From: a virus
Direction: 5' to 3' (one strand)
IMG/VR virus record: IMGVR_UViG_3300037504_000682
Span: 35,176-99,175 of that record
DNA: 64,000 nt
The notes under the pieces are model-generated. The model ran no database searches. It had not been told where the DNA came from and was given only the letters and a program-made list of their open reading frames with translations. Below, piece after piece: positions 8,291 to 42,189 of the stretch. How positions within the stretch are numbered: position 1 is the first letter of the stretch; each line of letters starts with the position of its first letter. The translations under genes were made by a program, and so were the position numbers.

Positions 8291-8335
8291 ATGAAACCTC
8301 AATTAAAACCCGTTAGGAGGTCGATTAATCTATGA
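8291..8335 (+). CDS. 14-aa upstream ORF (MKPQLKPVRRSINL) overlapping integrase start
   Basis: GGAGGAG RBS at 8281; its TGA overlaps integrase ATG (ATGA). Confidence 0.4.
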   Translation: MKPQLKPVRRSINL

Positions 8336-9237
8336 AAAGGTGGGACCGATTAATCGACCGTTTCGCTACCGGCAAGGCCGTCCGCCGCAAGCCGGTGACC
8401 GTCGAGTGGTATCGCCAAAGGCTCAGTCACTGGGCCGAATTCACAACTAGCCGCAAGCTCAAGCCCAAAAAAGTAAAAGCTAAACATCTTGACAAGTTCT
8501 TTGCCGGCCTTAGAGAGGCCGGATACACCGCCAATACCATCAAAGGCACCGAAACCGCCCTTCGGACTTTTTTCGGCTGGTTGGTCCGCCGGGGCAAGAT
8601 GAAGCGCAATCCGTTCGACCGCTTCGAGCCGGTTGAGGTTCCCCGCCAGTCGCAGCCGATCATCCGGCTGGAGTACGCTTACCGGATGATCCGGGCGGCC
8701 GAAGCCGACGATTCCGTGATCGCCCGCCGGGACGCCGCTATTATGCGCTTCCTGCTCAGCACCGGAGCGCGTAGAGAGGAGGTGGTTTCTGTCAGATGGG
8801 AGTGGCTCGACCTGGCCGGCGGCCTGGTCAAGTTGCGGGGCAAATTCGGCCACGAACGGTTGATTCCACTCGTGGCGACCACCGTCACGGCCCTGGCGAT
8901 CTGGATCGAGGCCCGGCCAGCCAGTGACTGGCTGTTTGTCAGCCTGAAGGCTAACCAGTACAATCAAGTCGGGGACAAGCTGGCGGTCAATACGATCAAC
9001 AAGCTGCTTGACCGCTGGAAAATCGCGGCCGGCCTGCCAGAAGAGGCCGAGGTCAATCCCCACGCCTGGCGACGCAGGTTCGCCACGGAGCTGGCCAAAG
9101 CCGGAGATCCGTTCCGGCTCCAGACCCTGCTGGGTCATCTGGATATGAACACGACAAAAAAATACATCCTCGATCAGCCCGATATTTTGAGGGAGATGAT
9201 CGAGCGCTATGGGCCGGGAATCAAAGGCGATACGTGA
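8332..9237 (+). CDS. int: Tyrosine integrase
   Basis: RDAAI..FLLSTGARREE (R), K, HAWRR (HxxR), LGH, TTKKY; adjacent tRNA fragment. Confidence 0.92.
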   Translation: MKRWDRLIDRFATGKAVRRKPVTVEWYRQRLSHWAEFTTSRKLKPKKVKAKHLDKFFAGLREAGYTANTIKGTETALRTFFGWLVRRGKMKRNPFDRFEPVEVPRQSQPIIRLEYAYRMIRAAEADDSVIARRDAAIMRFLLSTGARREEVVSVRWEWLDLAGGLVKLRGKFGHERLIPLVATTVTALAIWIEARPASDWLFVSLKANQYNQVGDKLAVNTINKLLDRWKIAAGLPEEAEVNPHAWRRRFATELAKAGDPFRLQTLLGHLDMNTTKKYILDQPDILREMIERYGPGIKGDT

Positions 9238-21296: not shown

Positions 21297-21680
21297 AAAG
21301 AGGCTCTTTTCTGCCGGCCGGGGCGACAAATCAAAAGGCGTTAAATTCAAAATAGGCCGGCTTATTTTGTGACAGCCACCAAGGAAATTACTGGTCGCTA
21401 AATGCAAGATAAGCCGGCCTTTTTGTGTGGTCGTTCGTCAGAAATTATCAGCCGGTAAACCAGGGATAGCGCCAACTAATTTCTCTGGCCACAGGAGAGA
21501 AATAGTGGCGACTAAAGGCGGGCTTATTTCTCTCTCTTGTCCACACGAATTACCGGAGCCTATTCTGGAAATAGCCCAGTTTATTTTCTCCCGGCCACCC
21601 GAGAAAATAACGGCCATTAATCGCCGGTTAAGCCGCTCTATTTTCTCCCGGGCCGGACGAGAAAAATAAACGTTGCAAAG
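21297..21680. repeat. Array A of ~48-bp degenerate dyad elements (6-7 units)
   Basis: Repeated TA-N8-TA-TTTYTC-N~10-12-GAGAAA-TA-N8-TA. Confidence 0.7.
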
Positions 21681-29227: not shown

Positions 29228-32200
29228 ATGCCGGATCCGCTAGTCGTTCAACTCGCTAACCAATTTCGGGAGCAGCTCGACGGCCGGGCCAATGAGGCCA
29301 TCGAGCAGATGGCCGGCGAGTGGCTCAAGGTCGAGGAGCGCCTGAAGGCTGACATCGAGCTTTTGGCCGCCGAACTGGCCGCCGCGCCCGGCGAGGTCAA
29401 GCTCAGCCCGATGACCGAGACGGTCAAGCTGATGCAGGAGGCCGGCTACGCGCCGGATTACATCCTCCAGCTCCTGGCCACCCAGGGCATTTTCGAGATA
29501 CCGGAGGTGCCCCAGCCCCAGGCCAAGCAACTCAAGGACTGGCAGCTGGCCCAGCTGCGGCGCTACGTCCGCCTCCTGGTCCAAGTGCAGGCCGAGATCG
29601 CCCGCTTCACCGGCCAGACGGCCGCCCCGATTATCGAGCAGCTCCAGGCCGACGCGGCCTATGAGGGTATTCAAAACGCCCTGACGATGATCGAAGCCTC
29701 GGTGTCAAGTGCCGGCGGCAGTACGGTCGATCTCGCCTTTGACCAGCTCAATACCGCCGCCGTGGAGAACATCGTGGCTATCGCCGGGGCCGGCCGGCCC
29801 CTGGGCGACCTGCTCCAGGCCGCTTATCCCCTGTCAGCCAACGGGATTACCAATGAGCTCGTCTACGGCACAGCCAAGGGCCAGAACCCGCGCAAAACAG
29901 CCCGGTCGATTATTGAAAATGGCCTGGCCCAGGGGCTCAACCATATGCTACTGGTGGCCAGAGACCAGCAGGTTAGAGCGGTCAGGGAGTCAGCCCGGCA
30001 GCAGTACGCCCGGGCCGGCATCGAGGGCTACCGCCGGCTGGCCGCCAAGCAGGCTCGCACCTGCCTGGCCTGCCTGGCCCTGGACGGCACCATCTGGCCC
30101 ACCTCGGAGCTGATGGCGCTTCATCCCCAAGATAGATGCTCGATGCTTCCGCTGGTGCCCGGCTTTGAGCCCGTTCAGTTTGAGACCGGCCCCGAGTGGT
30201 TCATGAAGCAGCCGGCTTCGGTCCAGAAGGAAATGATGGGCCCGGGCAAGTATGAGCTTTGGAAGGCCGGCGGCTTCGAGTTTGACCAGCTGGCCACGAT
30301 CAAGCCCAATCGCACCTGGGGGCCGAGCGCCCAGGTGACCACCCTCAAGGACCTGCAGCGCGGCCGGGGCGGATTCCGGCCGCCGGGCTCACCGACCCCG
30401 GCCCAACCCCGACCACCTACTGGACCGGTCGCCCCTGGCCCTTCTCCCCTGCCCGGCCTGGATCACGAGGCCCTGATGATCAAGGACCTGCACCAGCTGG
30501 GGCCGGATTGGGGCGAGCAGACCAACTGGAAAAACCAGAGCTACGGCGGAATCCTCTTTGACGACCAGGGTCGGGTGCTGCTGCGAAAGCCGACCGGCGA
30601 ATTCGGCGGCTACGCCTGGACTTTCCCCAAGGGCAAGATGAACAACTCCAAGGAGCACCCTGTCCAGACGGCCTTAATGGAAGTCGAGGAGGAGACCGGC
30701 CACGACGGCCAGATCATCGGCCTGGTGCCGGGCCAGTTCAAGGGAGACACCGGCCAGACCAACTTCTTCCTGATGAAATCCAACAGCTGGGACCGGTCGT
30801 TGATGGATGACGAGACCGAGCGGTTGGTCTGGGCTACGCCGGAGGAGGCCAAGAAGCTCATACGGCAGGGGGCCAACGAGAAGGGGGTCAAGCGGGACCT
30901 GGCCGTCCTGGAGGCGGCCACGAAGGCCCACGGCGACCTGCTGAGTGGGGAGGCGACCAACGACTACCTGTTCGACCAGAAGGGGCCGGTGGTGATCACC
31001 AACTTTAGTCAGCCACTCCTGGATCACATCGAAAAGCAGGCGGGGCAGATCAGCCACCAGAACAAAATGGAGCTACTTGTAACCAAGGCTGACATTGGTA
31101 AAAGCGGCACCAAGGGCATAGTAGTTCTGGATAGCGACGGGAGCCTGAAGGCTCTGGCCACTTATGATGACAAGTCCAGTGACTATGTATATGTTCATAA
31201 CGCCTGGGGCGATACAGTTACCAACGGAAAAACCCTGCTTATAAACTTGGGGCAGATAGCCGCTAAGGACGGCAGGGGTATTATCTTGACCCCCAAAGCA
31301 AGCAAGGTCAAACAATCCGCACCAAAAGTTGGATACAAGTCAACCGACGATGGCGGGCCGGTCACCCCGGGCTCGTTTTACCTTGAATCTGACTGGATGA
31401 AGGAATGGAAAAAGGCCCCGACCAAGTTCAAGCCGCCCAGTCCCCGGCCGCTTCCGCCTGAGCCCAAGGGGTACGACCGTAAGACCATCCCTCCAACTGA
31501 CGCCAAGCTAACGGGTGAGATAAAAGAGCTGGCCCAGGCGGACTTCGGCGATCCCCTGGCCTTGAAGGGAGCCCAGGTGGCGGCTGATAAAATCGCCGGC
31601 GGCCAGAAGGGGTTTATGTACGCCTCCGACACCGGCAAGCTGAAGGGGGTCATTTCTTACGAGGAGCAGGGTTCGATCATCAAGGTCGGCTCGGCCGGCT
31701 TCAGCGACTTCGAGACCAACCTGGCGGGCCTCCAGGACGTGGTGAAAATAGCCAAGCAAGCCGGCAAGGACTTCGTTACCTTCGCCCCGAAGGGCCCCAT
31801 CTTGGACCAGTACCTCAAATGGGGCTTTGAGGTCAACACCGCTTACGGCAACGGCGCTTCCCTAATTCTCAAGAAGCAGAACTTCGATGAGTGGCTGGGT
31901 GACCCGGCCAAATACGGCAAGGAGCACCGCTCCTCGCTGGAGCCCACCCCCTCCGGCAGCTACAGCCCGCCACCCCAGCCGACCAGCAGCGGTTACAAGG
32001 CCACGCCCCGGCCCCGGGACCCTGACCCCCTGCCGGATCCGGCTCCCCTGCCCGACCCTGACGATTTCCCGCCGGACCCGGCCGTGCTGACCGTCGTCCG
32101 TAAACTGGGTGGGTCGACCGGGGCCGAGCTGGTCGAGGACGTGGTCACCGGCCGGCGCTACGTCCGCAAGCGAGGCGGTAGCCCTGACCACATCCTGGAG

Positions 32201-33592
32201 GAGGTTCACGCCGATGCGGCCTACCAGGCGGCCGGGGCTAACGTGCCCCGCTTCAAGTTGTACGACACCCCCGCCGGCCCGGTCAAGTTGGCCGAGTTCA
32301 TCGAGGGCGAGGTGCTGGGCGACGTGCTAAAGAAGGGCGGGGCCCGGGCCAAGAAGGCAAGAGAGGCGATGAAGGAGAATTTTGGGGCCGACGCGCTGTT
32401 TGGCAATCGGGACGTGATAGGCGCGGACTACGACAACGTCCTGGTTGATAAGTCTGGCCGGGTCTGGCGCATCGACAATGGCGGGTCGTTCAGGTTCCGG
32501 GCAATGGGCGAGCGAAAGACCGACTGGGACGATTACCCTCTTGAGTTCTGGTCGATGCGAGACAAGCAATACAGGCAGGTTCACGATTTGTTTGGCGACC
32601 TGGACTTTTATTCCATCTCCGACCAGGTAATGGAGCTAAAGCGCCGGCGGGAGGCAATCCTGGCCGCCGTGCCGGAGGAGGTCCGGGACGTGCTGGATCG
32701 CCGGCTGCGAAACATCACGGATATGGCCACCACCGGCCAGGCGATGCAGGGCGATGATTTCCAGGTCGACTATGCCGACGGAATGAGCCGGCAGCGAATG
32801 GAGATGCGCAAGGGCGGGCTGACTGATCAGATGCCCCTGGCGATGGGGATTAAGGGATACGAGAAGGCCAGCGCCAAGAAGCGTTACAAAGGGGCTGTGA
32901 ATACCAGCGCGGTCTACGACGAACAGGGCCGACAGTTCGACCGGCTGCGGGGTGGGAACTCACTGATCGGCCAACTTAAGGGCTTTGTGAACAAGGCCGG
33001 CGGTAATTATGACCTGGTCGTCAAGTGGGCCAGCGAACAGGCCGGCAGTAGCTGGTCGCCGGCATCTCAGGCGCTGAAATACCACGTGGTCCAACAGATG
33101 AACAAGGCCGAAAAGCTGTTCTGGTGGCGAGATGGCAAATCAAAAGCCGAGAAGTATTATAAATCCATAGCCAGCGATAAGGCTGCCTATGATAAAACCT
33201 TCCAGGCCCTGCACGCCTTTACCCAGGAGATGTTGACCAGAATGGACCTGCCGAATAAGACAGAAAGAGATACAATCTTCTTGCTCAGATCGGAGGCGTC
33301 CAATATTTTGAGCAGGAACGGGATAAAACCGGGAGACACAGGGGCCACGATGCCCCGGGGGGCCATTGAGAGTACATCTGTTTTTGGAGGGGTGTACATC
33401 GGGGGCTCGGAGCTAACTCGACAAGAGGTCCCTTTGCATCGGATAATCGCGCCGTATTTTATGGAAAGGGTCCCAGGCAGCGGGGTAAGTATGTTCTACG
33501 GTGACAACGAAAATGAATTCGTGGTCATTCTCGGGGGCGACCTGCCATTCGACTACGTTGGCAGAAATAACGGGTCGGTTGTCATTGACTGA
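29228..33592 (+). CDS. MuF head morphogenesis protein fused to Nudix, GNAT-like, kinase-like and ART-like modules
   Basis: MuF RTCLACLALDG...HPQDRC; Nudix FPKG...EVEEETG; kinase LGGSTGA...YVRK...GNRD....DN...RIDNGG; C-term R...STS...ENE. Confidence 0.8.
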   Translation: MPDPLVVQLANQFREQLDGRANEAIEQMAGEWLKVEERLKADIELLAAELAAAPGEVKLSPMTETVKLMQEAGYAPDYILQLLATQGIFEIPEVPQPQAKQLKDWQLAQLRRYVRLLVQVQAEIARFTGQTAAPIIEQLQADAAYEGIQNALTMIEASVSSAGGSTVDLAFDQLNTAAVENIVAIAGAGRPLGDLLQAAYPLSANGITNELVYGTAKGQNPRKTARSIIENGLAQGLNHMLLVARDQQVRAVRESARQQYARAGIEGYRRLAAKQARTCLACLALDGTIWPTSELMALHPQDRCSMLPLVPGFEPVQFETGPEWFMKQPASVQKEMMGPGKYELWKAGGFEFDQLATIKPNRTWGPSAQVTTLKDLQRGRGGFRPPGSPTPAQPRPPTGPVAPGPSPLPGLDHEALMIKDLHQLGPDWGEQTNWKNQSYGGILFDDQGRVLLRKPTGEFGGYAWTFPKGKMNNSKEHPVQTALMEVEEETGHDGQIIGLVPGQFKGDTGQTNFFLMKSNSWDRSLMDDETERLVWATPEEAKKLIRQGANEKGVKRDLAVLEAATKAHGDLLSGEATNDYLFDQKGPVVITNFSQPLLDHIEKQAGQISHQNKMELLVTKADIGKSGTKGIVVLDSDGSLKALATYDDKSSDYVYVHNAWGDTVTNGKTLLINLGQIAAKDGRGIILTPKASKVKQSAPKVGYKSTDDGGPVTPGSFYLESDWMKEWKKAPTKFKPPSPRPLPPEPKGYDRKTIPPTDAKLTGEIKELAQADFGDPLALKGAQVAADKIAGGQKGFMYASDTGKLKGVISYEEQGSIIKVGSAGFSDFETNLAGLQDVVKIAKQAGKDFVTFAPKGPILDQYLKWGFEVNTAYGNGASLILKKQNFDEWLGDPAKYGKEHRSSLEPTPSGSYSPPPQPTSSGYKATPRPRDPDPLPDPAPLPDPDDFPPDPAVLTVVRKLGGSTGAELVEDVVTGRRYVRKRGGSPDHILEEVHADAAYQAAGANVPRFKLYDTPAGPVKLAEFIEGEVLGDVLKKGGARAKKAREAMKENFGADALFGNRDVIGADYDNVLVDKSGRVWRIDNGGSFRFRAMGERKTDWDDYPLEFWSMRDKQYRQVHDLFGDLDFYSISDQVMELKRRREAILAAVPEEVRDVLDRRLRNITDMATTGQAMQGDDFQVDYADGMSRQRMEMRKGGLTDQMPLAMGIKGYEKASAKKRYKGAVNTSAVYDEQGRQFDRLRGGNSLIGQLKGFVNKAGGNYDLVVKWASEQAGSSWSPASQALKYHVVQQMNKAEKLFWWRDGKSKAEKYYKSIASDKAAYDKTFQALHAFTQEMLTRMDLPNKTERDTIFLLRSEASNILSRNGIKPGDTGATMPRGAIESTSVFGGVYIGGSELTRQEVPLHRIIAPYFMERVPGSGVSMFYGDNENEFVVILGGDLPFDYVGRNNGSVVID

Positions 33593-33652: not shown

Positions 33653-33973
33653 ATGAAAATCACCGATGCCAGATGGACCGAAGCCAGCAACGGCCTGCCG
33701 CTGCTGAAACTGAAAATCAACGGAGTAGAGGTCATCATCGACCCGGCCCAGAAAGCGATTTCTGAAGGAGTAGTGTTTTTGACGACGCCGCCCGAACATC
33801 TTGACCTGCTGCCGGAGATTACCATCCCGGGGGACAAGAGCGACAACCGGGGCTCGATCACCACCAACCAGGCCACAAGAGACAGGAGGATACTCAGGCT
33901 GACCAAGGAGTTCCTGGAGGCCGCCCAGAAGGACGATTTCGAGCCGGGGCCGGTGGCCCTGGAGGAAGAGTAA
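33653..33973 (+). CDS. Small acidic protein, candidate immunity protein for the MuF effector
   Basis: Directly downstream of MuF fusion; own TGaTATACT (-10 near 33635-33643); followed by terminator. Confidence 0.55.
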   Translation: MKITDARWTEASNGLPLLKLKINGVEVIIDPAQKAISEGVVFLTTPPEHLDLLPEITIPGDKSDNRGSITTNQATRDRRILRLTKEFLEAAQKDDFEPGPVALEEE

Positions 33974-33999
33974 AGCCGGGGGCAAGCCCGGCTTTTTTT
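33973..33999 (+). terminator. Intrinsic terminator
   Basis: AAGCCGGG...CCCGGCTT + T run. Confidence 0.8.
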
Positions 34000-34007
34000 A
34001 TTCCTTA

Positions 34008-34290
34008 GAGAAAATGGATGGCCTTATTTGAGAATAGGCCGACTTGTTTTGTCTGGCCTGGCGGGAAAAATAGGCCGGCTTATAGTGGTCGCTATTTCTC
34101 GGGTGGCCGGAGAGAAATAGAGAGGGTTATAGTTCGACTTGTTTGTCTCGGGTCGCCCGAGAAATTAGCGGAGCTTGTTTGGGAATGAAGGGGCGTTAAT
34201 TTGTGGCCGGGTGGAGAGAAATTAACGATCGGTAAAGGGAGGATAGAGTAGCTTGTTTTATCTGGTCACCAGGGCCTGGCGACCAGAGTT
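34008..34290. repeat. Array B of ~48-bp degenerate dyad elements (about 5 units)
   Basis: Same TA-N8-TR / TTTYTC...GAGAAA grammar as 21297-21680. Confidence 0.7.
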
Positions 34291-34292
34291 TA

Positions 34293-34339
34293 GAACGCGT
34301 GTTCAAAACTGTACAGCGGACTCCTCGGTATGGTAAAAT
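34293..34339 (+). promoter_or_regulatory. SOS-box-like dyad and extended -10 upstream of CRISPR array
   Basis: GAAC-GCGT-GTTC at 34293-34304; TGgTAAAAT at 34331-34339. Confidence 0.55.
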
Positions 34340-34373
34340 GGGATGGAAGTGTAACCCAACCGGCAACCGAAGT

Positions 34374-34587
34374 CTATTCCCCACACGCGTGGGGGTGAAC
34401 CGAGAACCCGCTGCGGCCGGATGAGCAGGAATCAGCTATTCCCCACACGCGTGGGGGTGAACCGGGCCAGCAGCTGGCCGGGGCGGCCTGGGCCAAGCTA
34501 TTCCCCACACGCGTGGGGGTGAACCGGGGTCCCCGCTTTTGGCCAGTTCGGTCGCGAACTATTCCCTACATACGTGGGGGCGGCGGG
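34374..34587 (+). CRISPR. Type I-E-like mini CRISPR array: 3 identical repeats + 1 degenerate, 3 spacers, no cas genes in window
   Basis: CTATTCCCCACACGCGTGGGGGTGAACCG (29 nt) at 34374, 34436, 34498; degenerate copy at 34559; spacers 33, 33, 32 nt. Confidence 0.95.
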
Positions 34588-34630
34588 TTACACAACGAGA
34601 CTGGAAGTGTAACCGATACTTGGAGGGGAA

Positions 34631-35215
34631 ATGGCGGAAATCGGCGAGGAGAGACGTATCACAGAGCGCGATGTAATCCAGGTTCGCAAGAAGATCGACA
34701 CCGTCTTGCAAAAAGCCCTGGCGGGCTATGAAACCGACTTCAAGGATTCGGGCGGATATGTGAAGTGGGGCGAGGTTCAACAAGCGGTACATGAGGCGTT
34801 GGGTGATTTCTGGTCAAGGGCAGATCCGGAAATTTGGTTTGACGCAGCCCGGCCGACCATTGTTTGCCTTTGTGGGTCGACCAGGTTCTGGCGGGAATTC
34901 CAGCGGGCCAGCCTGCGCGAAACGATGGCCGGCAAAATCGTCCTGAGCATCGGGGCGGCCACCGGCACCGACGATGAACACTTCGGCAATCTTCCCCAAG
35001 AAGAGTATGACCGGATAAAGGTAGAGCTTGACGAGCTACACCTGAGAAAGATCGACCTGGCGGACGAGGTTCTGATCCTGAATGTCGACGGATACATCGG
35101 CGAGTCGACTGGTCGAGAGTTGGCCTACGCTAGGCGGGCCGGCAAGTTCGTGAGGTTTCTTGAGGATCATCCTGGGATTGGGGGAACGATAAAGGGGGAA
35201 AGGACTGACCAATGA
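34631..35215 (+). CDS. Nucleoside 2-deoxyribosyltransferase-like fold protein
   Basis: VCLCGSTRF...KIDLADEVLILNVDGYIGEST..E..YA. Confidence 0.6.
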   Translation: MAEIGEERRITERDVIQVRKKIDTVLQKALAGYETDFKDSGGYVKWGEVQQAVHEALGDFWSRADPEIWFDAARPTIVCLCGSTRFWREFQRASLRETMAGKIVLSIGAATGTDDEHFGNLPQEEYDRIKVELDELHLRKIDLADEVLILNVDGYIGESTGRELAYARRAGKFVRFLEDHPGIGGTIKGERTDQ

Positions 35216-35568
35216 ACAACGAAGAACCAACCACCTGGGCCATAATCGAACTTATGGGCCATCAAAAAATAGCCGGCCGCTACAGCGAGCGCGGGGCCAT
35301 GCACCGCGTCGACGTCCCCGGCGATGGGGATGAATTTAGATTCACCCGGCTTTACTCGCCCCAGGCCATCTACTCGATCACCTTCGTTGACGAGCAAGCG
35401 GCCCGGATGGCGGCCAGGGCGCTGGAGGTGCAGCCGATCACGATCTGGGAGGTCAACCAGGAAATTCGCCGGCTGGCAGCTCCGGCTGAATCAGGCGACG
35501 TGCTGGATGAGTACGTCGAGCACGAAGACTACGACTACGACGACGATTATGAGGGAGTGCCGTTTTAG
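35212..35568 (+). CDS. Conserved phage hypothetical protein
   Basis: WAIIELMGH..IAG...RVDVP...AIYSIT. Confidence 0.7.
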   Translation: MNNEEPTTWAIIELMGHQKIAGRYSERGAMHRVDVPGDGDEFRFTRLYSPQAIYSITFVDEQAARMAARALEVQPITIWEVNQEIRRLAAPAESGDVLDEYVEHEDYDYDDDYEGVPF

Positions 35569-35630
35569 TGGACAAAGGTGCCACGGTCGTTTTCGGTCCA
35601 ATATTGAAAGACCAGGAAGGCTCATACCCA

Positions 35631-36176
35631 ATGAAGCTAATCGTAATCCCCAGGGAAAAGACTATCATCGAAGTACCCGACGAAGTCCGGCCGGCGCTCT
35701 GCCTCGACCTGGACGGCACGGTCCGCTACAGCAAAAACGGCGAATTCATCAACCGGCCGGAGGACATCGACCTCTTCGATGGCGTCGAGGAGAAAATCTG
35801 GCAGTACCGAGACGACGGCTATCTGATCTTCGGGATCACCAACCAGGGCGGGGTCGCCTTCGGCTACAAAACCCCGGCCGGCTGCGAGGCTGAGATCGAG
35901 GCCACTTGCAACCTATTTGAGCGCAACCCGTTTCACATCATCAAATCCAGCTACCACCATCCCAAGGGGACGGTCGAGCCGTACAACTACCGGTCGCTGC
36001 TGCGGAAGCCGGACATCGGGATGCTGGCCCTGTGCGAGGTCGACGCCTGGCAGGCCGGCTATGTGGTCGACTGGGACCGGAGCCTCTTTGTGGGTGACCG
36101 GCCGGAGGACCAGGAGTGTGCCGAGTGGGCCGGGATCGAGTTCCGGTGGGCCGGTGAGTTTTTCGGGAGGGAGTGA
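35631..36176 (+). CDS. HAD-IIIA phosphatase (GmhB/polynucleotide 3'-phosphatase-like)
   Basis: DLDGT, ITNQGG, RKP..GM, FVGDR.ED. Confidence 0.85.
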   Translation: MKLIVIPREKTIIEVPDEVRPALCLDLDGTVRYSKNGEFINRPEDIDLFDGVEEKIWQYRDDGYLIFGITNQGGVAFGYKTPAGCEAEIEATCNLFERNPFHIIKSSYHHPKGTVEPYNYRSLLRKPDIGMLALCEVDAWQAGYVVDWDRSLFVGDRPEDQECAEWAGIEFRWAGEFFGRE

Positions 36177-36863
36177 AACCAAAGTGCCAGCCGAGCAATA
36201 CTTGATTGACTACAGAGCCGTTCACGGCGAATATCCAGAATGGTATTATGAGCAACAGGCCGATTGTTGGTGCTGTGCCTACGGGTGCAGCGACCATCAG
36301 GGCAATCTGTTGCCCAACGCCTGCGACTGCTGTACGGGGCAGTGCGATTGCCCGTGTCACCAAAAGCAGCTTGAGCCCAGCAGGGTAGAAGCCGCCCCAC
36401 GAGACAGGGACCCCGGCCAGGAATAAATGCCGGCACCGCCAGCCGCACGGCGACCGGACGCCTACCGCAGGGGGCTTGACCTGCGGCGTAATTCTACCCG
36501 TTCACATAGATAGCAGTGTAGCACCGAGAGCGACGGCCGGGAGAGGTGCGGCCCCGGCCGTCTTGAGGCCAACCGGGAGCATTATCCCGTCGTCGGCTGG
36601 CATACCTGACAGAAACGTATGCTGGTTGTTATCCTCCCAACCAATAGGATGAGGTTGGCAAGCGTTCGGAACAGTTTGCGCGGCCGGAAAAGGAACTCCC
36701 GTTTTAAGTGCCTGTGACGGATACAGACCACCCAGTTATGGCGTTCTGTGATAAAAACGCCAGAAACCAAAACGGCCGCCCTGTGACCACCGAAGCCCCG
36801 CGCGGCGCGCGGGGTCAGATGGAGGTAGGTGGCGCGGGGCGGCCCATCAGAAGGAGAGGCTTA

Positions 36864-37118
36864 ATGTATCCACCAAAACCAACTCACATCTACATCGGCC
36901 GGGACGCCGGCGGCTGCTGCCTGGCCATCCGAAACGACTATGGCGACAAAGACACCGGCCAGAATGTGGCCCAAATGATAGAGAGCGGCCTGGCCGTCGA
37001 GCGGGTCGACTGGGAAACCTACGTTGGCAAGGTCTCCAACGAACCGACCTTTATGAACTGTAACTGCAAGCCGCCTGAGCCGGAGCCCGAGTTGCAGCCG
37101 GCGCTGTTTGCGGACTAA
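36864..37118 (+). CDS. Hypothetical protein
   Basis: AGGAGAGG RBS before ATG 36864. Confidence 0.55.
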   Translation: MYPPKPTHIYIGRDAGGCCLAIRNDYGDKDTGQNVAQMIESGLAVERVDWETYVGKVSNEPTFMNCNCKPPEPEPELQPALFAD

Positions 37119-37124
37119 TTAGGA

Positions 37125-37340
37125 GTGAGCGTTATGGAACCGACCATATTCTACCGTATTGAAACCCTGGTCCAAGCGGCTGCTTGGACCTCAATAACTG
37201 AGGTCGACCGCGTTGAGCCGATAGAAGACGAGGCCAAAGCTCAAGAGCTCTTCGAGGTCGCCAAGAAGCTAAAACGCCCCAACGACTGGCCGGTCCGGTT
37301 GGTCAAGGTCACCGAAGAGGTACTGGAGATCAGCGAATGA
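37125..37340 (+). CDS. Hypothetical protein
   Basis: Operon ORF. Confidence 0.55.
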   Translation: MSVMEPTIFYRIETLVQAAAWTSITEVDRVEPIEDEAKAQELFEVAKKLKRPNDWPVRLVKVTEEVLEISE

Positions 37341-37717
37341 CCACCCTCAAGCCCTACATCGCCTACCCTGAGCATTACGGTCCTCACCACGCCGCCGCTC
37401 TGGTCCTGGCCACCTCCGTCAGGGAGGCCAAACGGTTGGCCTGGCGGCGCAGCTGGTTGCCGGACGAGTGCGACGGCTGGACCGATCTGGCCGTCCGGCT
37501 GTTTCGGCCTGCGGACCGCGCCCTGCCATTGGCCGACCAGGATAAGCTGGCCGCCGGCATCCCTCACGTGGTCGAAAGCCCGGCCTACTGCCAGTCCTGT
37601 GAGCAGTGGGGCTGCGGGGTGACTGAGGACGGCCGGTGCTGTCATTGTAATGAGTATCCCGGCGATGAGTTAGTGGGGTTGTTTGGTGGACAGAAAGAAG
37701 AAGCAGGAGATGCATGA
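37337..37717 (+). CDS. Hypothetical protein with C-terminal Zn-finger-like Cys
   Basis: CQSC...CCHC. Confidence 0.6.
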   Translation: MTTLKPYIAYPEHYGPHHAAALVLATSVREAKRLAWRRSWLPDECDGWTDLAVRLFRPADRALPLADQDKLAAGIPHVVESPAYCQSCEQWGCGVTEDGRCCHCNEYPGDELVGLFGGQKEEAGDA

Positions 37718-38885
37718 GCTGGCTTTATTTGCCGGAGCAGGAGGCGGGCTCCTCGCCACAAAGTGGCTCCTTGGCTGGGAGACCGTCTGCTACGTCGAAA
37801 AAGAAGAATATCCGGTCAGGATCATCAAGGCACGGATCAGGGACGGACTCCTTGATGACGCCCCGATCTGGTCCGATGTCCGGTCGTTCACCAAGCGAAA
37901 CAATCAGGCACGGCCGTTCATCCGCCAACTGCGGGCGATACGCGGCTCTCTGGTTGTCACGGCGGGTTTCCCCTGTCAACCGTTCAGCCTGGCGGGAAAA
38001 TCCAGAGCCGAGGCAGACGAGCGGAACGGTTGGCCGGATACCGTTCGCATTATTAGAGAAATCCGGCCGGCGTGGGTTTTTCTGGAGAATGTACCAGGAC
38101 TCCTTGCCGGGTCTCACGGATACTATGGCACGATTCTCCAAGAGTTGGCCCAGAGCGGGTATGATGCTCGATGGCGTGTGTTATCTGCGGCCGAGATGGG
38201 AGCGCCGCATCAGCGAGACAGGCTCTGGATTGTGGCCCACGCCCAGGAACAACACCGGGCCGTCGATGGACCGAAAGCATCTCAGCCTCGACGGGGCGGT
38301 GAGGCTATGGCCGACTCCAGTCTATTCGGATCATTCCGATCGAGCACCCGGCCGGCCGCACCTGACCAAAAACGGCACAATCAGGCACGTCAACAAGGCG
38401 GGGCAACAGAGTTTTATGAGGCTGTCCCAGGTGGTCAAACTCTGGCCCACACCGACCGTCAACGGCAACCACAACAGGGCTGGTCTGAGCAAAAAGAGCG
38501 GGGACGGGTTGGCTACGGCCGTCAAGCGGTGGGCGACCCCGAGTGCCAGGGACTGGCGATCAGGCAAGGCGTCAGAGGAAACACACCAGCGCAACGCCCG
38601 GCCGCTATCGGAGCAGGTGATCAGGGCGGAGAAATTCAGGGCGCCAACACAGACCGACGCCACGAAATGGAACAACGCGTCGGTTCAGGAGAGACGGGCA
38701 AAAGGGCGAAGCGTTCGTTTACCCAACCAGGTTGCCCCGGGCCGTGGTGGGCAACTGAACCCGATGTGGGTCGAGTGGCTGATGGGGTGGCCTCTCGGGT
38801 GGACCGACTCAAGGCCCTTGGGAACGGGCAGGTTCCTGACGTGGCTGCGCTCGCGTGGGTTGAATTAACAAAGGATTTATTATGA
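37710..38885 (+). CDS. DNA cytosine-5 methyltransferase, alpha-type chain
   Basis: LFAGAGG (I), GFPCQ (IV), ENV (VI), HQRDR (VIII), LKALGNG (X); region between VIII and X looks non-conserved. Confidence 0.9.
   Translation: MHELALFAGAGGGLLATKWLLGWETVCYVEKEEYPVRIIKARIRDGLLDDAPIWSDVRSFTKRNNQARPFIRQLRAIRGSLVVTAGFPCQPFSLAGKSRAEADERNGWPDTVRIIREIRPAWVFLENVPGLLAGSHGYYGTILQELAQSGYDARWRVLSAAEMGAPHQRDRLWIVAHAQEQHRAVDGPKASQPRRGGEAMADSSLFGSFRSSTRPAAPDQKRHNQARQQGGATEFYEAVPGGQTLAHTDRQRQPQQGWSEQKERGRVGYGRQAVGDPECQGLAIRQGVRGNTPAQRPAAIGAGDQGGEIQGANTDRRHEMEQRVGSGETGKRAKRSFTQPGCPGPWWATEPDVGRVADGVASRVDRLKALGNGQVPDVAALAWVELTKDLL
37714..38868 (+). CDS. Overlapping +1-frame partner (beta-type chain: WPTP repeats + motif IX)
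   Basis: 384 aa open frame with several (L)WPTP repeats and LNPMWVEWLMGWPLGWT. Confidence 0.7.
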   Translation: MSWLYLPEQEAGSSPQSGSLAGRPSATSKKKNIRSGSSRHGSGTDSLMTPRSGPMSGRSPSETIRHGRSSANCGRYAALWLSRRVSPVNRSAWRENPEPRQTSGTVGRIPFALLEKSGRRGFFWRMYQDSLPGLTDTMARFSKSWPRAGMMLDGVCYLRPRWERRISETGSGLWPTPRNNTGPSMDRKHLSLDGAVRLWPTPVYSDHSDRAPGRPHLTKNGTIRHVNKAGQQSFMRLSQVVKLWPTPTVNGNHNRAGLSKKSGDGLATAVKRWATPSARDWRSGKASEETHQRNARPLSEQVIRAEKFRAPTQTDATKWNNASVQERRAKGRSVRLPNQVAPGRGGQLNPMWVEWLMGWPLGWTDSRPLGTGRFLTWLRSRGLN

Positions 38886-39187
38886 CAGTAACCGTATCGC
38901 TCAACAGGGATTACAAAATCTTCCCTATCGGCGGCAATATGCCCGGCCGGGAATGGGTCGACTTTTGGCCGACCTTCATCCCCCTCAAGTCCACTCAGGG
39001 TATCTGGGGTGAAATGTCGGAGCCGCCCCGGGATGGAGACGTTATCGCCGCCGATATGGAGTCCGGCCGGCGGGCCTTGTTTGTCGTTCACGGTATGAGA
39101 AGCCTTGATCCGCCCGACTTTTTTTGTGAAGCCTCATTTGTCGGCTACGAGGACGATAACGAGCTGCCGGAATCGGAGGCCAAATGA
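38882..39187 (+). CDS. Hypothetical protein
   Basis: Coupled ORF. Confidence 0.55.
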   Translation: MTVTVSLNRDYKIFPIGGNMPGREWVDFWPTFIPLKSTQGIWGEMSEPPRDGDVIAADMESGRRALFVVHGMRSLDPPDFFCEASFVGYEDDNELPESEAK

Positions 39188-40146
39188 GTCACCTCCCCGC
39201 CCCCCGCACGTCCACCCCGGCCGCTCTCCAGACCGTCATCACCCTATGGGCCGACCACGTCACCGACCCGGCCAGCCCCCGCCGGCGGGACCTGCTGCGG
39301 GACAAGACCAAGGCCGCGCTCGACTTCTTCGAGTTCGCCGGCCGGCCCCCGGCCGCCGTTGGCCCGGTCGAGGTCAAGAATTGGCAGGCCGAACTTGAGG
39401 CCCAGGGGCTGGCCACGTCCACGATCTACGCCAAGATCAGCCGGGTGTCATCGTTCTATAACTGGGCCATCGAGGCCGGCCACGTGGAGCGCAACCCGGT
39501 CGATGAGGCCCGGCCCCGGGCTCCCCGGCCCTACCAGAGCGAGAGCACCCAGTCCCTGAGCGACGACGACGTGGCCCGGCTGCTGGAGGTGGTCCGGGAG
39601 CGAGACGACCTGGTGGGCCGGCGGGATTACGCGATGCTCACCTTGTACTTCTTCTCCGGCAAGCGCCGGCGGGAGATCGTGCAGCTGCGGGCCGGGGACG
39701 TGCGGATCAAGGGAGAGAAGCTGATCATCCGTTCCCAGGTCAAGGGCGGCGACTACGAAGCCTTTGAGGTCGACAACCCTCTGGCCGTCGAGGCCCTCGC
39801 CGCCTATCTGGCCCGGCGGGGTGTCAGCCTGGCCGACCTGGCCGAGGATGCGCCGCTGTGGGTAGTCAGCCGCAAGGCCGGCAAGTATGCCGGTCGAGCC
39901 ATCAGTAGCCACGGTTTCGTGGCCAATTTGAAGCGGTACGCCAGGGCCGCCGGCCTGGGCGACATCCACCTGCACCAGACCCGGCACACGTTTGCGAGGT
40001 GGGTGGGCGAGGAGAGCGGCAGCCTCCAGGAGGCCCAGGCAGCGCTGGGGCATAGGAACGTGGGGACTACCCGGGTGTATCTGCCCCGGGTGGCGGTGAA
40101 GAAGGATCATTATAGCCAGAAGATTAGCGAAAGGTTGGGATTGTGA
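39184..40146 (+). CDS. Second tyrosine recombinase (Xer/Cre-like)
   Basis: RDYAML...SGKRRREI, VKGG, HQTRH, LGH, TTRVY. Confidence 0.9.
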   Translation: MSHLPAPRTSTPAALQTVITLWADHVTDPASPRRRDLLRDKTKAALDFFEFAGRPPAAVGPVEVKNWQAELEAQGLATSTIYAKISRVSSFYNWAIEAGHVERNPVDEARPRAPRPYQSESTQSLSDDDVARLLEVVRERDDLVGRRDYAMLTLYFFSGKRRREIVQLRAGDVRIKGEKLIIRSQVKGGDYEAFEVDNPLAVEALAAYLARRGVSLADLAEDAPLWVVSRKAGKYAGRAISSHGFVANLKRYARAAGLGDIHLHQTRHTFARWVGEESGSLQEAQAALGHRNVGTTRVYLPRVAVKKDHYSQKISERLGL

Positions 40147-40403
40147 CTACCGACTACACCAACGGCAACTGGCACGCGGCCACCCTGGGCGAATTCGTGT
40201 CTCTGTTGATTGATAGCGGCGGCGATCCGGCGGTTATTTTTCGGGTGGTAGAAGATGAACCAAGTAAAGACGGCGCGTTCGTCAGGCACCTGGAAGTGAT
40301 GATGCTACCGCAGGGGCGGGTAAAAGAGAAGATCAACCAGGTCAAGCCGGAATCGATCCACAACACGCTGGTAGACCTGATTAAGGCAGGGGTGGTGAAA
40401 TGA
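40143..40403 (+). CDS. Hypothetical protein
   Basis: Coupled ORF. Confidence 0.5.
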   Translation: MTTDYTNGNWHAATLGEFVSLLIDSGGDPAVIFRVVEDEPSKDGAFVRHLEVMMLPQGRVKEKINQVKPESIHNTLVDLIKAGVVK

Positions 40404-41008
40404 AACAAATCGGCATTACCGGCGCTCTGGTTCTACTCATCGCCTTATCTTGCAGCATCTTCTCCGTTCGGATCGGCTCTTCGGTCGGCCGGTCAATCGA
40501 GACCGCCGCCCACCAGCGGGCCGCAGACCGGTCCCAGGCCCGGCAGGAGCGGGACCAGTGGCACCGGCTGGCCATGGAGGAGGCCCGGCAGACAGCGTCG
40601 TACCGGATCGCAGCCAAGCGAGCCACCTGGTACTGGCTGTCCATTTTCGGCATCGGCTCCGGCGCAACCATCATGGTGACCGGGGTTTTATCGGTGGCCT
40701 GGTGGATGATCGGCCGCAGCCGGGCCGCAGTGGAGCGGTCTCGCAGAGAAGCGCGGTTGATTCCGGTCGATCCGGAGACGCGCCAGTTCCCACTGTTCGT
40801 TTACGAGCTGGCCGGCGCTCCCCGCATATACAACCCAAACACCGGCAGCGTGGTGACCCTGGAGGCGGGCCGGGACGAGATACCGATGCTGATCACCGGC
40901 TCATCGGCCACCCAGTTGGCCGGGGCGATTGCCCAGCAGGCGGCTAAAGCCCAGGACGCCGGCAGTGTGGCGATGATAAGCCCGCCGCTGGTGGTGGAGG
41001 ACAAATGA
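40400..41008 (+). CDS. Membrane protein
   Basis: Two hydrophobic segments. Confidence 0.6.
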   Translation: MKQIGITGALVLLIALSCSIFSVRIGSSVGRSIETAAHQRAADRSQARQERDQWHRLAMEEARQTASYRIAAKRATWYWLSIFGIGSGATIMVTGVLSVAWWMIGRSRAAVERSRREARLIPVDPETRQFPLFVYELAGAPRIYNPNTGSVVTLEAGRDEIPMLITGSSATQLAGAIAQQAAKAQDAGSVAMISPPLVVEDK

Positions 41009-42189
41009 GACTGACCCAACAACCCCTCTTTGGCGACCGGCTCACCCTGATCGAAGCTATCGGCCTGACCGTCGAGTCACTCCAGGCCTACGGCTCCGAC
41101 TACCACCACTGGGTCCTGGCCTTCAGCGGCGGCAAGGATTCAACCGTGGTCGTCTCCCTTCTGGCCTGGCTCATCGAGCAGGGCCACATCGAGCCCCCAC
41201 CGGCCGGGATCACCGTCCTGATGAGCGACACCCGCCAGGAGTTCCTGCCGCTGCACCTGGCCGCCCTGGAGACGCTGAAGGTCGCCCAATCCTGCGGCTT
41301 CAGGGCCCGGGTAGTCCAGCCGCCGTTCGATCATCGGATGTACGTTTATATGCTCGGCCGGGGCGTCCCGCCGGCCAGCAACGTCTTTCGCTGGTGTACC
41401 CGGATACTCAAGGCCGACCCGATGGCCCGGGCCATTGAGGCCCTGGCCGAAACAAACGGCCAGGTGCTGGTCTTGACCGGTGTCCGGCAGGGCGAGAGCG
41501 CGGCCCGGGATCAACGGATCGCTCTCTCGTGCAGCCGGGACGGTGGCGAGTGTGGGCAGGGGTGGTTTCAGAACGCCAGCCGGGACGGGGTGGCCAGCAC
41601 CCTGGCCCCGCTGCTGCACTGGCGATTGTGCCACATCGAGGACTGGCTGCGCTTCTACGCCCCAGAGATCGGCCTGGACAGCCGGCCCATAATCGACATT
41701 TACGGCTTTGAGGAAGACGAGCAGATGAACCTCCGGACCGGCTGCGCCGGCTGTATGCTCATCGAGGAGGACCGGGCCCTGGCCAGGATCGTGCAGCTGC
41801 CGGGGTGGGGCTACCTGGCCCCATTGCAAAGGCTCAAGGCGGTGTATCGGGAGCTGAAGCGGCCCCAGAACCGGCTCAGGAAGTGGGGCGAACGTAAGAA
41901 GGACGGCTCGCTCGGGGCCAAGCAGGGCCGACTGGGCCCGCTTACGATGGAGGCGCGGCGCTGGGGACTGGAGCAGGTGCTGGCCATCCAGGAGGAGATA
42001 AACGGCGCGGCCCGGGTGCTGGGGCGGCCGGAGCTACACCTGATCACCGATGCCGAGCGGGAGAGGGTGCTGGAGCTGATCGAGGCCAACACGTGGCCCA
42101 GGGGCTGGACAGGAGAGGAGCCCCGGGGTGATGAGTTGGTGGATAAGATTGTGGCCGAGGGGGTGACCCTGCCGGTGTTGATTTCTTAG
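41005..42189 (+). CDS. PAPS-reductase-family (DndC-like) protein
   Basis: AFSGGKDS PP-loop, RWCT..LK..P, GVRQGESAARD, RTGCAGC, GPLT.EAR. Confidence 0.8.
   Translation: MRLTQQPLFGDRLTLIEAIGLTVESLQAYGSDYHHWVLAFSGGKDSTVVVSLLAWLIEQGHIEPPPAGITVLMSDTRQEFLPLHLAALETLKVAQSCGFRARVVQPPFDHRMYVYMLGRGVPPASNVFRWCTRILKADPMARAIEALAETNGQVLVLTGVRQGESAARDQRIALSCSRDGGECGQGWFQNASRDGVASTLAPLLHWRLCHIEDWLRFYAPEIGLDSRPIIDIYGFEEDEQMNLRTGCAGCMLIEEDRALARIVQLPGWGYLAPLQRLKAVYRELKRPQNRLRKWGERKKDGSLGAKQGRLGPLTMEARRWGLEQVLAIQEEINGAARVLGRPELHLITDAERERVLELIEANTWPRGWTGEEPRGDELVDKIVAEGVTLPVLIS

Follow-up and report, generated by a model that had tools for sequence, protein, structure and literature searches.

A cas-less type I-E mini-CRISPR array carried by a temperate-looking phage of a probable Anaerolineae host

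A temperate-looking phage, represented by a 99,175-bp IMG/VR virus record that CheckV rates as 96% complete, carries a real and well-formed type I-E mini-CRISPR array with no cas genes of its own. The DNA analysed here is bases 35176-99175 of that record, a stretch of 64,000 nucleotides which we call the window and whose numbering is used below. We consider it most likely that this is a functional virus-borne mini-array which arms host Cascade against competing elements, and we would put the probability of that reading at roughly 0.6. The array itself is laid out as follows.

34374-34402, + strand: repeat 1, 29 nt, a type I-E hairpin followed by the GTGAACCG handle
34403-34435, + strand: spacer 1, 33 nt, without a target in our searches
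34436-34464, + strand: repeat 2, the same as repeat 1
34465-34497, + strand: spacer 2, 33 nt, GC-rich, without a target in our searches
34498-34526, + strand: repeat 3, the same as repeat 1
34527-34558, + strand: spacer 3, 32 nt, whose reverse complement encodes FATELAKSGDP, a tyrosine-integrase subfamily motif
34559-34587, + strand: repeat 4, degenerate and terminal, with the hairpin part retained and the handle part lost

A sequence-only reading of this DNA had described four repeats and three spacers, and that count stands, with the qualification that three of the repeats are identical and the fourth is degenerate. The array spans 34374-34587. The intact 29-nt repeat, CTATTCCCCACACGCGTGGGGGTGAACCG, occurs three times (chance expectation 0), and its 24-nt core likewise has three occurrences in the window and none in 100 shuffles. 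Successive repeats start 62, 62 and 61 nt apart, and a period of 61-62 nt is also that of host arrays. In the predicted fold of each intact repeat (-11.7 kcal/mol), a stem of 7 bp closed by a 4-nt loop precedes the 8-nt handle. The assignment to type I-E is based on a CCCC..GGGG stem-loop within a 29-nt repeat and then an 8-nt handle ending in AACCG, together with spacers of 32-33 nt and the 61-62 nt period; for Cas6e and Cascade of E. coli, a 3′ hairpin of 21 nt together with a 5′ handle of 8 nt is the type I-E layout. Plasmid-borne arrays of Thermus, Lactobacillus and Streptomyces also match through their repeats in a search of PLSDB plasmids. The degenerate fourth repeat is instructive. Its hairpin part is altered at position 9, which gives a G-U pair, and at positions 13 and 14, which lie in the loop, and it folds like repeat 1 (-9.5 kcal/mol), whereas in the handle part five of the last seven positions have changed. 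With the hairpin part kept and the handle decayed, repeat 4 retains precisely those 21-22 nt that maturation of crRNA 3 requires, and the part that has been lost is dispensable, there being no spacer downstream that needs it. Degenerate terminal repeats of a similar kind end host arrays of the same repeat family.

Type I-E arrays usually have an adjoining cas operon and a long leader; both are absent here, which makes this an orphan mini-array. The claim that the window holds no cas genes can be extended to the entire record, since searches of all 99,175 bp for Cas6e, Cas7e, Cas5, Cse1, Cas1 and the Cas3 HD domain found none of them, and of 120 ORFs compared with PADLOC the strongest matches were to methyltransferases, DndC and DpdA. 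Cas genes in another part of the phage had been named as a result that would tell against a mini-array, and the whole-record search did not produce any; taken with the hairpin, the handle and the period, their absence bears out the description of a cas-less type I-E mini-array on a phage. The genes that surround the array are phage genes, among them a 1454-aa MuF/NUDIX head protein, a C5 methyltransferase, two tyrosine recombinases, a HAD phosphatase and a DndC-like protein. The 1454-aa protein (window 29228-33592) joins a MuF head-morphogenesis domain and a NUDIX domain to a long C-terminal half without assignment. That half was not found in 151 Anaerolineae-class genomes, and neither the protein, this half included, nor a 106-aa ORF of the same region has relatives in IMG/VR.

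The repeat also points to a host. When its core was scanned against 185,579 species genomes, matches were found in more than 120 genome stretches, chiefly from Chloroflexota, Planctomycetota and Cloacimonadota. The nearest repeats are identical at 28 of 29 positions, the sole difference being G for C at position 1, and occur in nine stretches, with seven Chloroflexota MAGs (six of them Anaerolineae: Leptolinea, Caldilineales and Anaerolineales) and one entry labelled 'bacterium' among them. All five of the genomes with a 28/29 repeat that were tested have cse1 and cas6e (Cse1 E-values from 1e-69 to 1e-110), and these genes lie within a few kb of the array in G001 and G002, the two for which positions were compared. 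Matching the repeat to host type I-E arrays had been proposed as a check on the mini-array reading and has come out in its favour; a host without type I-E, the other result said to weigh against it, was not encountered, so far as the host can be inferred from the repeat. The best homologue of the phage integrase comes from a Chloroflexi MAG (49% identity). To judge from repeat similarity and this one integrase homologue, the phage probably infects a member of the Anaerolineae (Chloroflexota) that has a type I-E system. None of 1340 host spacers, taken from arrays of this repeat family, matches the phage. Chromosomal type I-E arrays of Anaerolineae MAGs (for example L120, L024 and L110) resemble that of the phage: their repeats match its repeat at 28 of 29 positions and follow one another with a period of 61-62 nt, a GAAG-type junction precedes the first of them, and the terminal one is degenerate. 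They differ in size, with 15-100 repeats, and in having long leaders and cse1...cas6e-cas1-cas2 operons next to them, whereas the phage array has four repeats, no cas genes and, in all four repeats, C rather than the G with which the nearest host repeats begin.

Arrays of this kind are not confined to one phage. In IMG/VR, 22 stretches contain this repeat core, and at least 13 stretches other than ours hold small arrays of 2-5 repeats; one is a 100% complete phage of 44,678 bp (G406, loci L190-L192) with an array of three repeats and two spacers near 40.6 kb, and about a dozen more, L172, L173, L184, L185 and L170/L189 among them, have 2-5 repeats. Cas-less arrays of this type I-E family are thus recurrent in viral contigs. 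In JGI/ENA metagenomes, the exact phage repeat was found only in a host array (L157) and as a solitary repeat (L156). The latter, at 3950-4130 of contig ERZ795041 NODE-3301, is one exact phage-type repeat (CTATT...) in an apparent rRNA-operon spacer, flanked by two direct repeats of roughly 80 bp, and may reflect integration at an ectopic site or else an error of assembly.

What the spacers target is less easily read. Spacers 1 and 2 had been said to lack a convincing match in the window, and the same is true across the phage genome, where their best ungapped matches (22/33 and 24/33) fall inside the shuffle range; no spacer has a self-targeting match there. No true protospacer for any of the three was found in IMG/VR, in which spacer 2 gave only chance matches of 21-25/33. 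Searches were likewise negative for spacer 1 in JGI metagenomes, for spacer 3 in 401 Anaerolineae-class genomes, for spacers 1 and 3 in five candidate hosts, and for the spacers in INPHARED cultured phages and PLSDB plasmids. No protospacer from which to infer a PAM was found among the other loci examined. Spacer 3 does, however, have a relative within the phage itself.

9079-9110, - strand: spacer-3-like site, 25/32, inside the phage tyrosine integrase gene at 8332-9237 (+ strand)

The gene is assigned to Pfam Phage_integrase (E = 4.9e-27). An ungapped match of 25/32 to it is reached by only 1 of 3000 spacer shuffles and by 12 of 3000 real 32-mers from other viral contigs, and in 1.29 Mb of other loci spacer 3 matches at no more than 22 positions. 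The mismatches fall at positions 3, 6, 10, 11, 21, 24 and 27; five of the seven are at codon third positions and the other two make up a single Ser/Ala change, such that FATELAKSGDP in the spacer corresponds to FATELAKAGDP in the phage integrase. The motif RFATE[LM]..[AS]..P is typical of this integrase subfamily, the top homologue of which is the Chloroflexi protein mentioned above, and the spacer-3 motif is absent from the second integrase of the phage. As a control, 14 spacers from five other small viral arrays showed no self-similarity above the null. The level of identity and the codon-third-position pattern of mismatches indicate that spacer 3 most likely derives from a homologous integrase of another element, and we conclude that it was probably acquired from such a gene. 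Since the match falls in the most conserved integrase motif, the spacer may have come from a distant element and not from a close rival. The integrase copy of the phage itself has AAC at the PAM-position flank and a mismatch at seed position 3, and should therefore be spared. The phage has two tyrosine recombinases (8332-9237 and 39184-40146) that share only 26% identity; the first, to which spacer 3 is related, sits in a patch of low GC content (0.54 versus about 0.61).

The same 25/32 match could be taken to mean that spacer 3 is a self-regulatory crRNA, guiding Cascade to bind the integrase gene of the phage without cleavage and so repress it in a CreA-like or cr-like manner. The mismatches at positions 6 and 24, two of the seven, coincide with the flipped-out every-sixth positions of type I-E Cascade as established for E. 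coli, and regulatory mini-arrays of the cr-like type have reportedly been described in a bioRxiv preprint of 2023. We nevertheless regard this explanation as very improbable. The seed mismatch and the AAC flank speak against it, as does a concentration of mismatches at codon third positions, the pattern left by a diverging gene and not one of designed partial pairing; the site, moreover, falls at codons 250-260 of 301, far inside the coding region, and not at a promoter.

The position of the array in the phage genome bears on how it would be expressed and on how it may have arrived. The flanking features, in order, are these.

33972-33995, + strand: intrinsic terminator (9-pair stem with six G-C pairs, T run) that closes the upstream unit after the 106-aa ORF
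34293-34304, no strand assigned: GAAC-N4-GTTC box, LexA/Cheo-box-like, probably a chance occurrence
34310-34339, + strand: promoter-like site TGTACA-18-TAAAAT with a TG extended -10, 9/12 match
34344-34356, + strand: first copy of the 13-bp direct repeat TGGAAGTGTAACC, at the predicted transcription start
34357-34373, + strand: 17-nt stretch before repeat 1, ending in CGAAGT and resembling the host leader end GAAG[G/A]
34585-34593, + strand: inverted copy GGGTTACAC of the direct-repeat core, seen in the sequence
34602-34614, + strand: second copy of the 13-bp direct repeat TGGAAGTGTAACC, 7 nt before the ribosome-binding site (RBS) of the next gene
34622-35215, + strand: RBS GGAGGGG and the 194-aa ORF (ORF 34631) in whose 5′UTR the array lies

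The promoter-like site pairs an extended -10, TGgTAAAAT at 34331-34339, with a -35-like TGTACA at 34310-34315 across a spacing of 18 nt; two such sites were seen in 1.4 kb against 0.5 expected, and one of them precedes the array. An extended -10 about 35 bp upstream of the array, and the lack of a long leader, had both been claimed, and both hold: repeat 1 begins after no more than 34 nt beyond the -10. Seven host leaders end in GAAGG or GAAGA immediately before their first repeat, and CGAAGT before repeat 1 of the phage may be a small leader remnant. With a promoter-like site upstream, and no terminator between the array and the RBS or ATG of ORF 34631, the array is placed in sense orientation in the 5′UTR of the next operon. 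The C-terminal domain of the 194-aa protein has a DUF4406/TIR-like fold that is common in phages. Whether the array can be said to have its own promoter is another matter. A plausible site exists, but that it forms part of the cassette is doubtful, for it lies outside the 13-bp direct repeats; since removal of the array would also leave an ordinary sequence of promoter, 5′UTR and RBS, the array looks as if it had been inserted behind a promoter already present in the phage. The perfect GAAC-N4-GTTC box, which ends 5 nt upstream of the -35, is present as described but occurs at chance frequency (two exact boxes in 99 kb versus 1.27 expected).

Directly upstream of the CRISPR promoter, at window 34008-34290, is a non-coding array of dyad elements in which AAATAGGCCGGCTTATTT-type palindromes alternate with ATTTCTC..GAGAAAT hairpins in a unit of about 57 bp; a second such array, at 21297-21680, lies upstream of packaging genes, and each of the two is followed by a GAAC-N4-GT(T/G)C box. 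These elements could be sites for a phage regulator or a partition protein. A promoter common to the CRISPR region and the 21.7-kb region was considered and set aside, the alignment showing shared dyad elements only. The operon behind the array (window 34631-42186) is rich in nucleic-acid-modification genes, encoding the DUF4406/TIR-like protein (a deoxyribosyltransferase-like fold), a HAD/PNK-type 3′-phosphatase, a C5 methyltransferase, an integrase and a DndC/PAPS-reductase-like protein. It also contains, downstream of the array, an Rfam DUF3800-VIII RNA (window 36775-36843, + strand; 48.1 bits against a gathering threshold of 40.2), and there is a DpdA-like match elsewhere in the phage genome.

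The 13-bp direct repeat reported at both flanks proved to be exact and unique to this locus: the genome holds two perfect copies and no other within two mismatches. The inverted copy of its core that had been noted at 34585 was also recovered, the core 8-mer GTGTAACC having three occurrences in the genome, all of them here and one inverted at 34586. Deletion of 34357-34614 in silico leaves the -10, GGGA, the 13-mer, GATACTT and GGAGGGGAAATG, that is, an ordinary short 5′UTR. To judge from this arrangement of the sequence, the array probably entered a pre-existing 5′UTR and left a 13-bp duplication behind, and it is plausible to read the direct repeat as an insertion scar. An array-free site with a single 13-mer would read TAAAATGGGATGGAAGTGTAACCGATACTTGGAGG. 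The 25 IMG/VR relatives of the 194-aa ORF share only residues 75-178 with it, and no synteny, array or 13-mer was found among them. None of 13 further small arrays of this repeat family in viruses has flanking direct repeats, which are therefore no general feature of such arrays; the duplication and the 5′UTR position are the only unusual points of this one. The flanks do not readily fit an integron attC, the inverted 8-mers being in the wrong order and spacing, or a transposon, there being no terminal inverted repeats at the ends of the insert. One could go further and suppose that a discrete cassette of about 258 bp was inserted, with a 13-bp target duplication, into the 5′UTR of the DNA-modification operon, and that Cas6e cleavage there makes downstream counter-defence expression depend on an active host type I-E system. 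We consider this quite improbable, but if true it would amount to a mechanism, so far unrecognised, for moving mini-arrays between genomes.

A discrete and possibly recent insertion, as the 13-bp repeat suggests, would also be expected if the array were a passive passenger: a small host array, or the leader-proximal end of one, captured not long ago by illegitimate recombination and without any selected function, the identity of its repeats reflecting the recency of capture. Conservation of the array is not demonstrable in a phage that is a singleton, no spacer targets were found (IMG/VR; JGI metagenomes for spacer 1), and host arrays end in degenerate repeats too. Several features are nonetheless difficult to reconcile with mere capture. 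The array is sense-oriented, 34 nt behind a promoter and within a 5′UTR; one spacer is homologous, yet not identical, to the integrase of its own carrier, which would rarely be expected of a random host array; the C at position 1 of all four repeats is unseen in the nearest host arrays; and at least 13 other viral stretches also have arrays of this family with 2-5 repeats. On balance we think it unlikely that the array is a passenger.

The position ahead of a DNA-modification operon, with no terminator between, lends itself to another interpretation, namely that the RNA serves in counter-defence or regulation and is not a weapon. As a decoy, strong expression of phage crRNAs would flood Cas6e and Cascade and dilute the host crRNAs directed against the phage; as a 5′UTR element, Cas6e cleavage would couple expression of the operon to host CRISPR proteins, with pairing of GGGTTACAC and GTGTAACC giving the RNA a new 5′ hairpin. 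An 8-bp hairpin does lie upstream of the RBS, after the point where Cas6e is predicted to make its last cut, and the 8-mer is confined to this locus. The thermodynamics, though, are no better than those of shuffled sequences (z = -0.5 for the local hairpin, z = -1.24 for long-range pairing in the 291-nt transcript), which deprives the earlier suggestion of a closing stem of support and weakens the regulatory version equally, and such flanks are missing from the 13 other small viral arrays of the family. A pure decoy would leave the homology between spacer 3 and the integrase unexplained. RNA anti-CRISPRs built from repeats exist (PMC11656645), and these Racr elements share with our array a phage-encoded, host-type CRISPR repeat without cas genes. 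Known examples, however, are solitary repeat units without canonical spacers, whereas the four regularly spaced repeats seen here should yield normal crRNAs; we accordingly rejected identity with a solitary-repeat RNA anti-CRISPR, and assign the counter-defence or regulatory explanation as a whole a low probability.

We therefore return to an array that arms host Cascade, for which we infer each step of the mechanism, from transcription through Cas6e cutting to the action of Cascade and Cas3. Transcription would begin at the phage promoter (34310-34339) on the + strand, with the array forming the 5′ part of the downstream operon mRNA. Host Cas6e would cut each repeat after its hairpin to release three crRNAs of 62, 62 and 61 nt, each composed of the 8-nt 5′ handle GUGAACCG, a spacer and the 21-nt 3′ hairpin. 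Host Cascade would load these phage crRNAs and host Cas3 would destroy matching DNA, the targets most likely being rival phages or mobile elements of the same host, so that the outcome would be superinfection exclusion. The integrase copy of the phage would escape by virtue of its seven mismatches, one of them at seed position 3, and of its AAC flank.

On this account the array belongs to an already described class, the virus-borne mini-CRISPR arrays, which Faure and colleagues are said to have reported in 2019 and which Medvedeva and colleagues treated in the same year (PMC6858448), with a later review (PMC11656645). Comparable cases are the arrays of Clostridioides difficile prophages (type I-B) and of cyanophage N-1, which are likewise host-type arrays without cas genes on temperate phages, but of another subtype and host and usually longer. 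Viral mini-arrays have host-type repeats and target related viruses, and the orthologous locus of the carrier bears point mutations that prevent self-targeting (PMC6858448; PMC11656645). Our array is like them in being cas-less on a viral genome with repeats of what is probably the host type, in its intergenic position behind a promoter, in having one spacer related to a gene of the carrier from which the carrier copy differs by point mutations, and in the suggestion that host Cas proteins are put to use to exclude heterotypic superinfection (PMC6858448; PMC11656645). It departs trivially from the class definition of 1-2 spacers (PMC6858448) in having three. Further differences are the type I-E repeat, the probable Chloroflexota host, the unique flanking 13-bp direct repeat, a leader reduced almost to nothing (17 nt ending in the host-like CGAAG) and the fact that no reciprocal partner virus or true protospacer was found. 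Both recombination and canonical adaptation have been proposed in the literature for the origin of viral mini-arrays, and the 13-bp duplication is a rare possible trace of the entry of an array into a viral genome.

The array does not alter the current picture of CRISPR biology. It does give an uncultured 99-kb phage a testable host assignment, in a group, the Anaerolineae and Chloroflexota at large, with almost no known cultured phages. The spacer, with its apparent integrase origin, agrees with what has been published on competition between related elements, and, if the array functions as we think most likely, the strategy by which viruses borrow the immunity of their hosts would extend to type I-E and to phages of the Anaerolineae and Chloroflexota.
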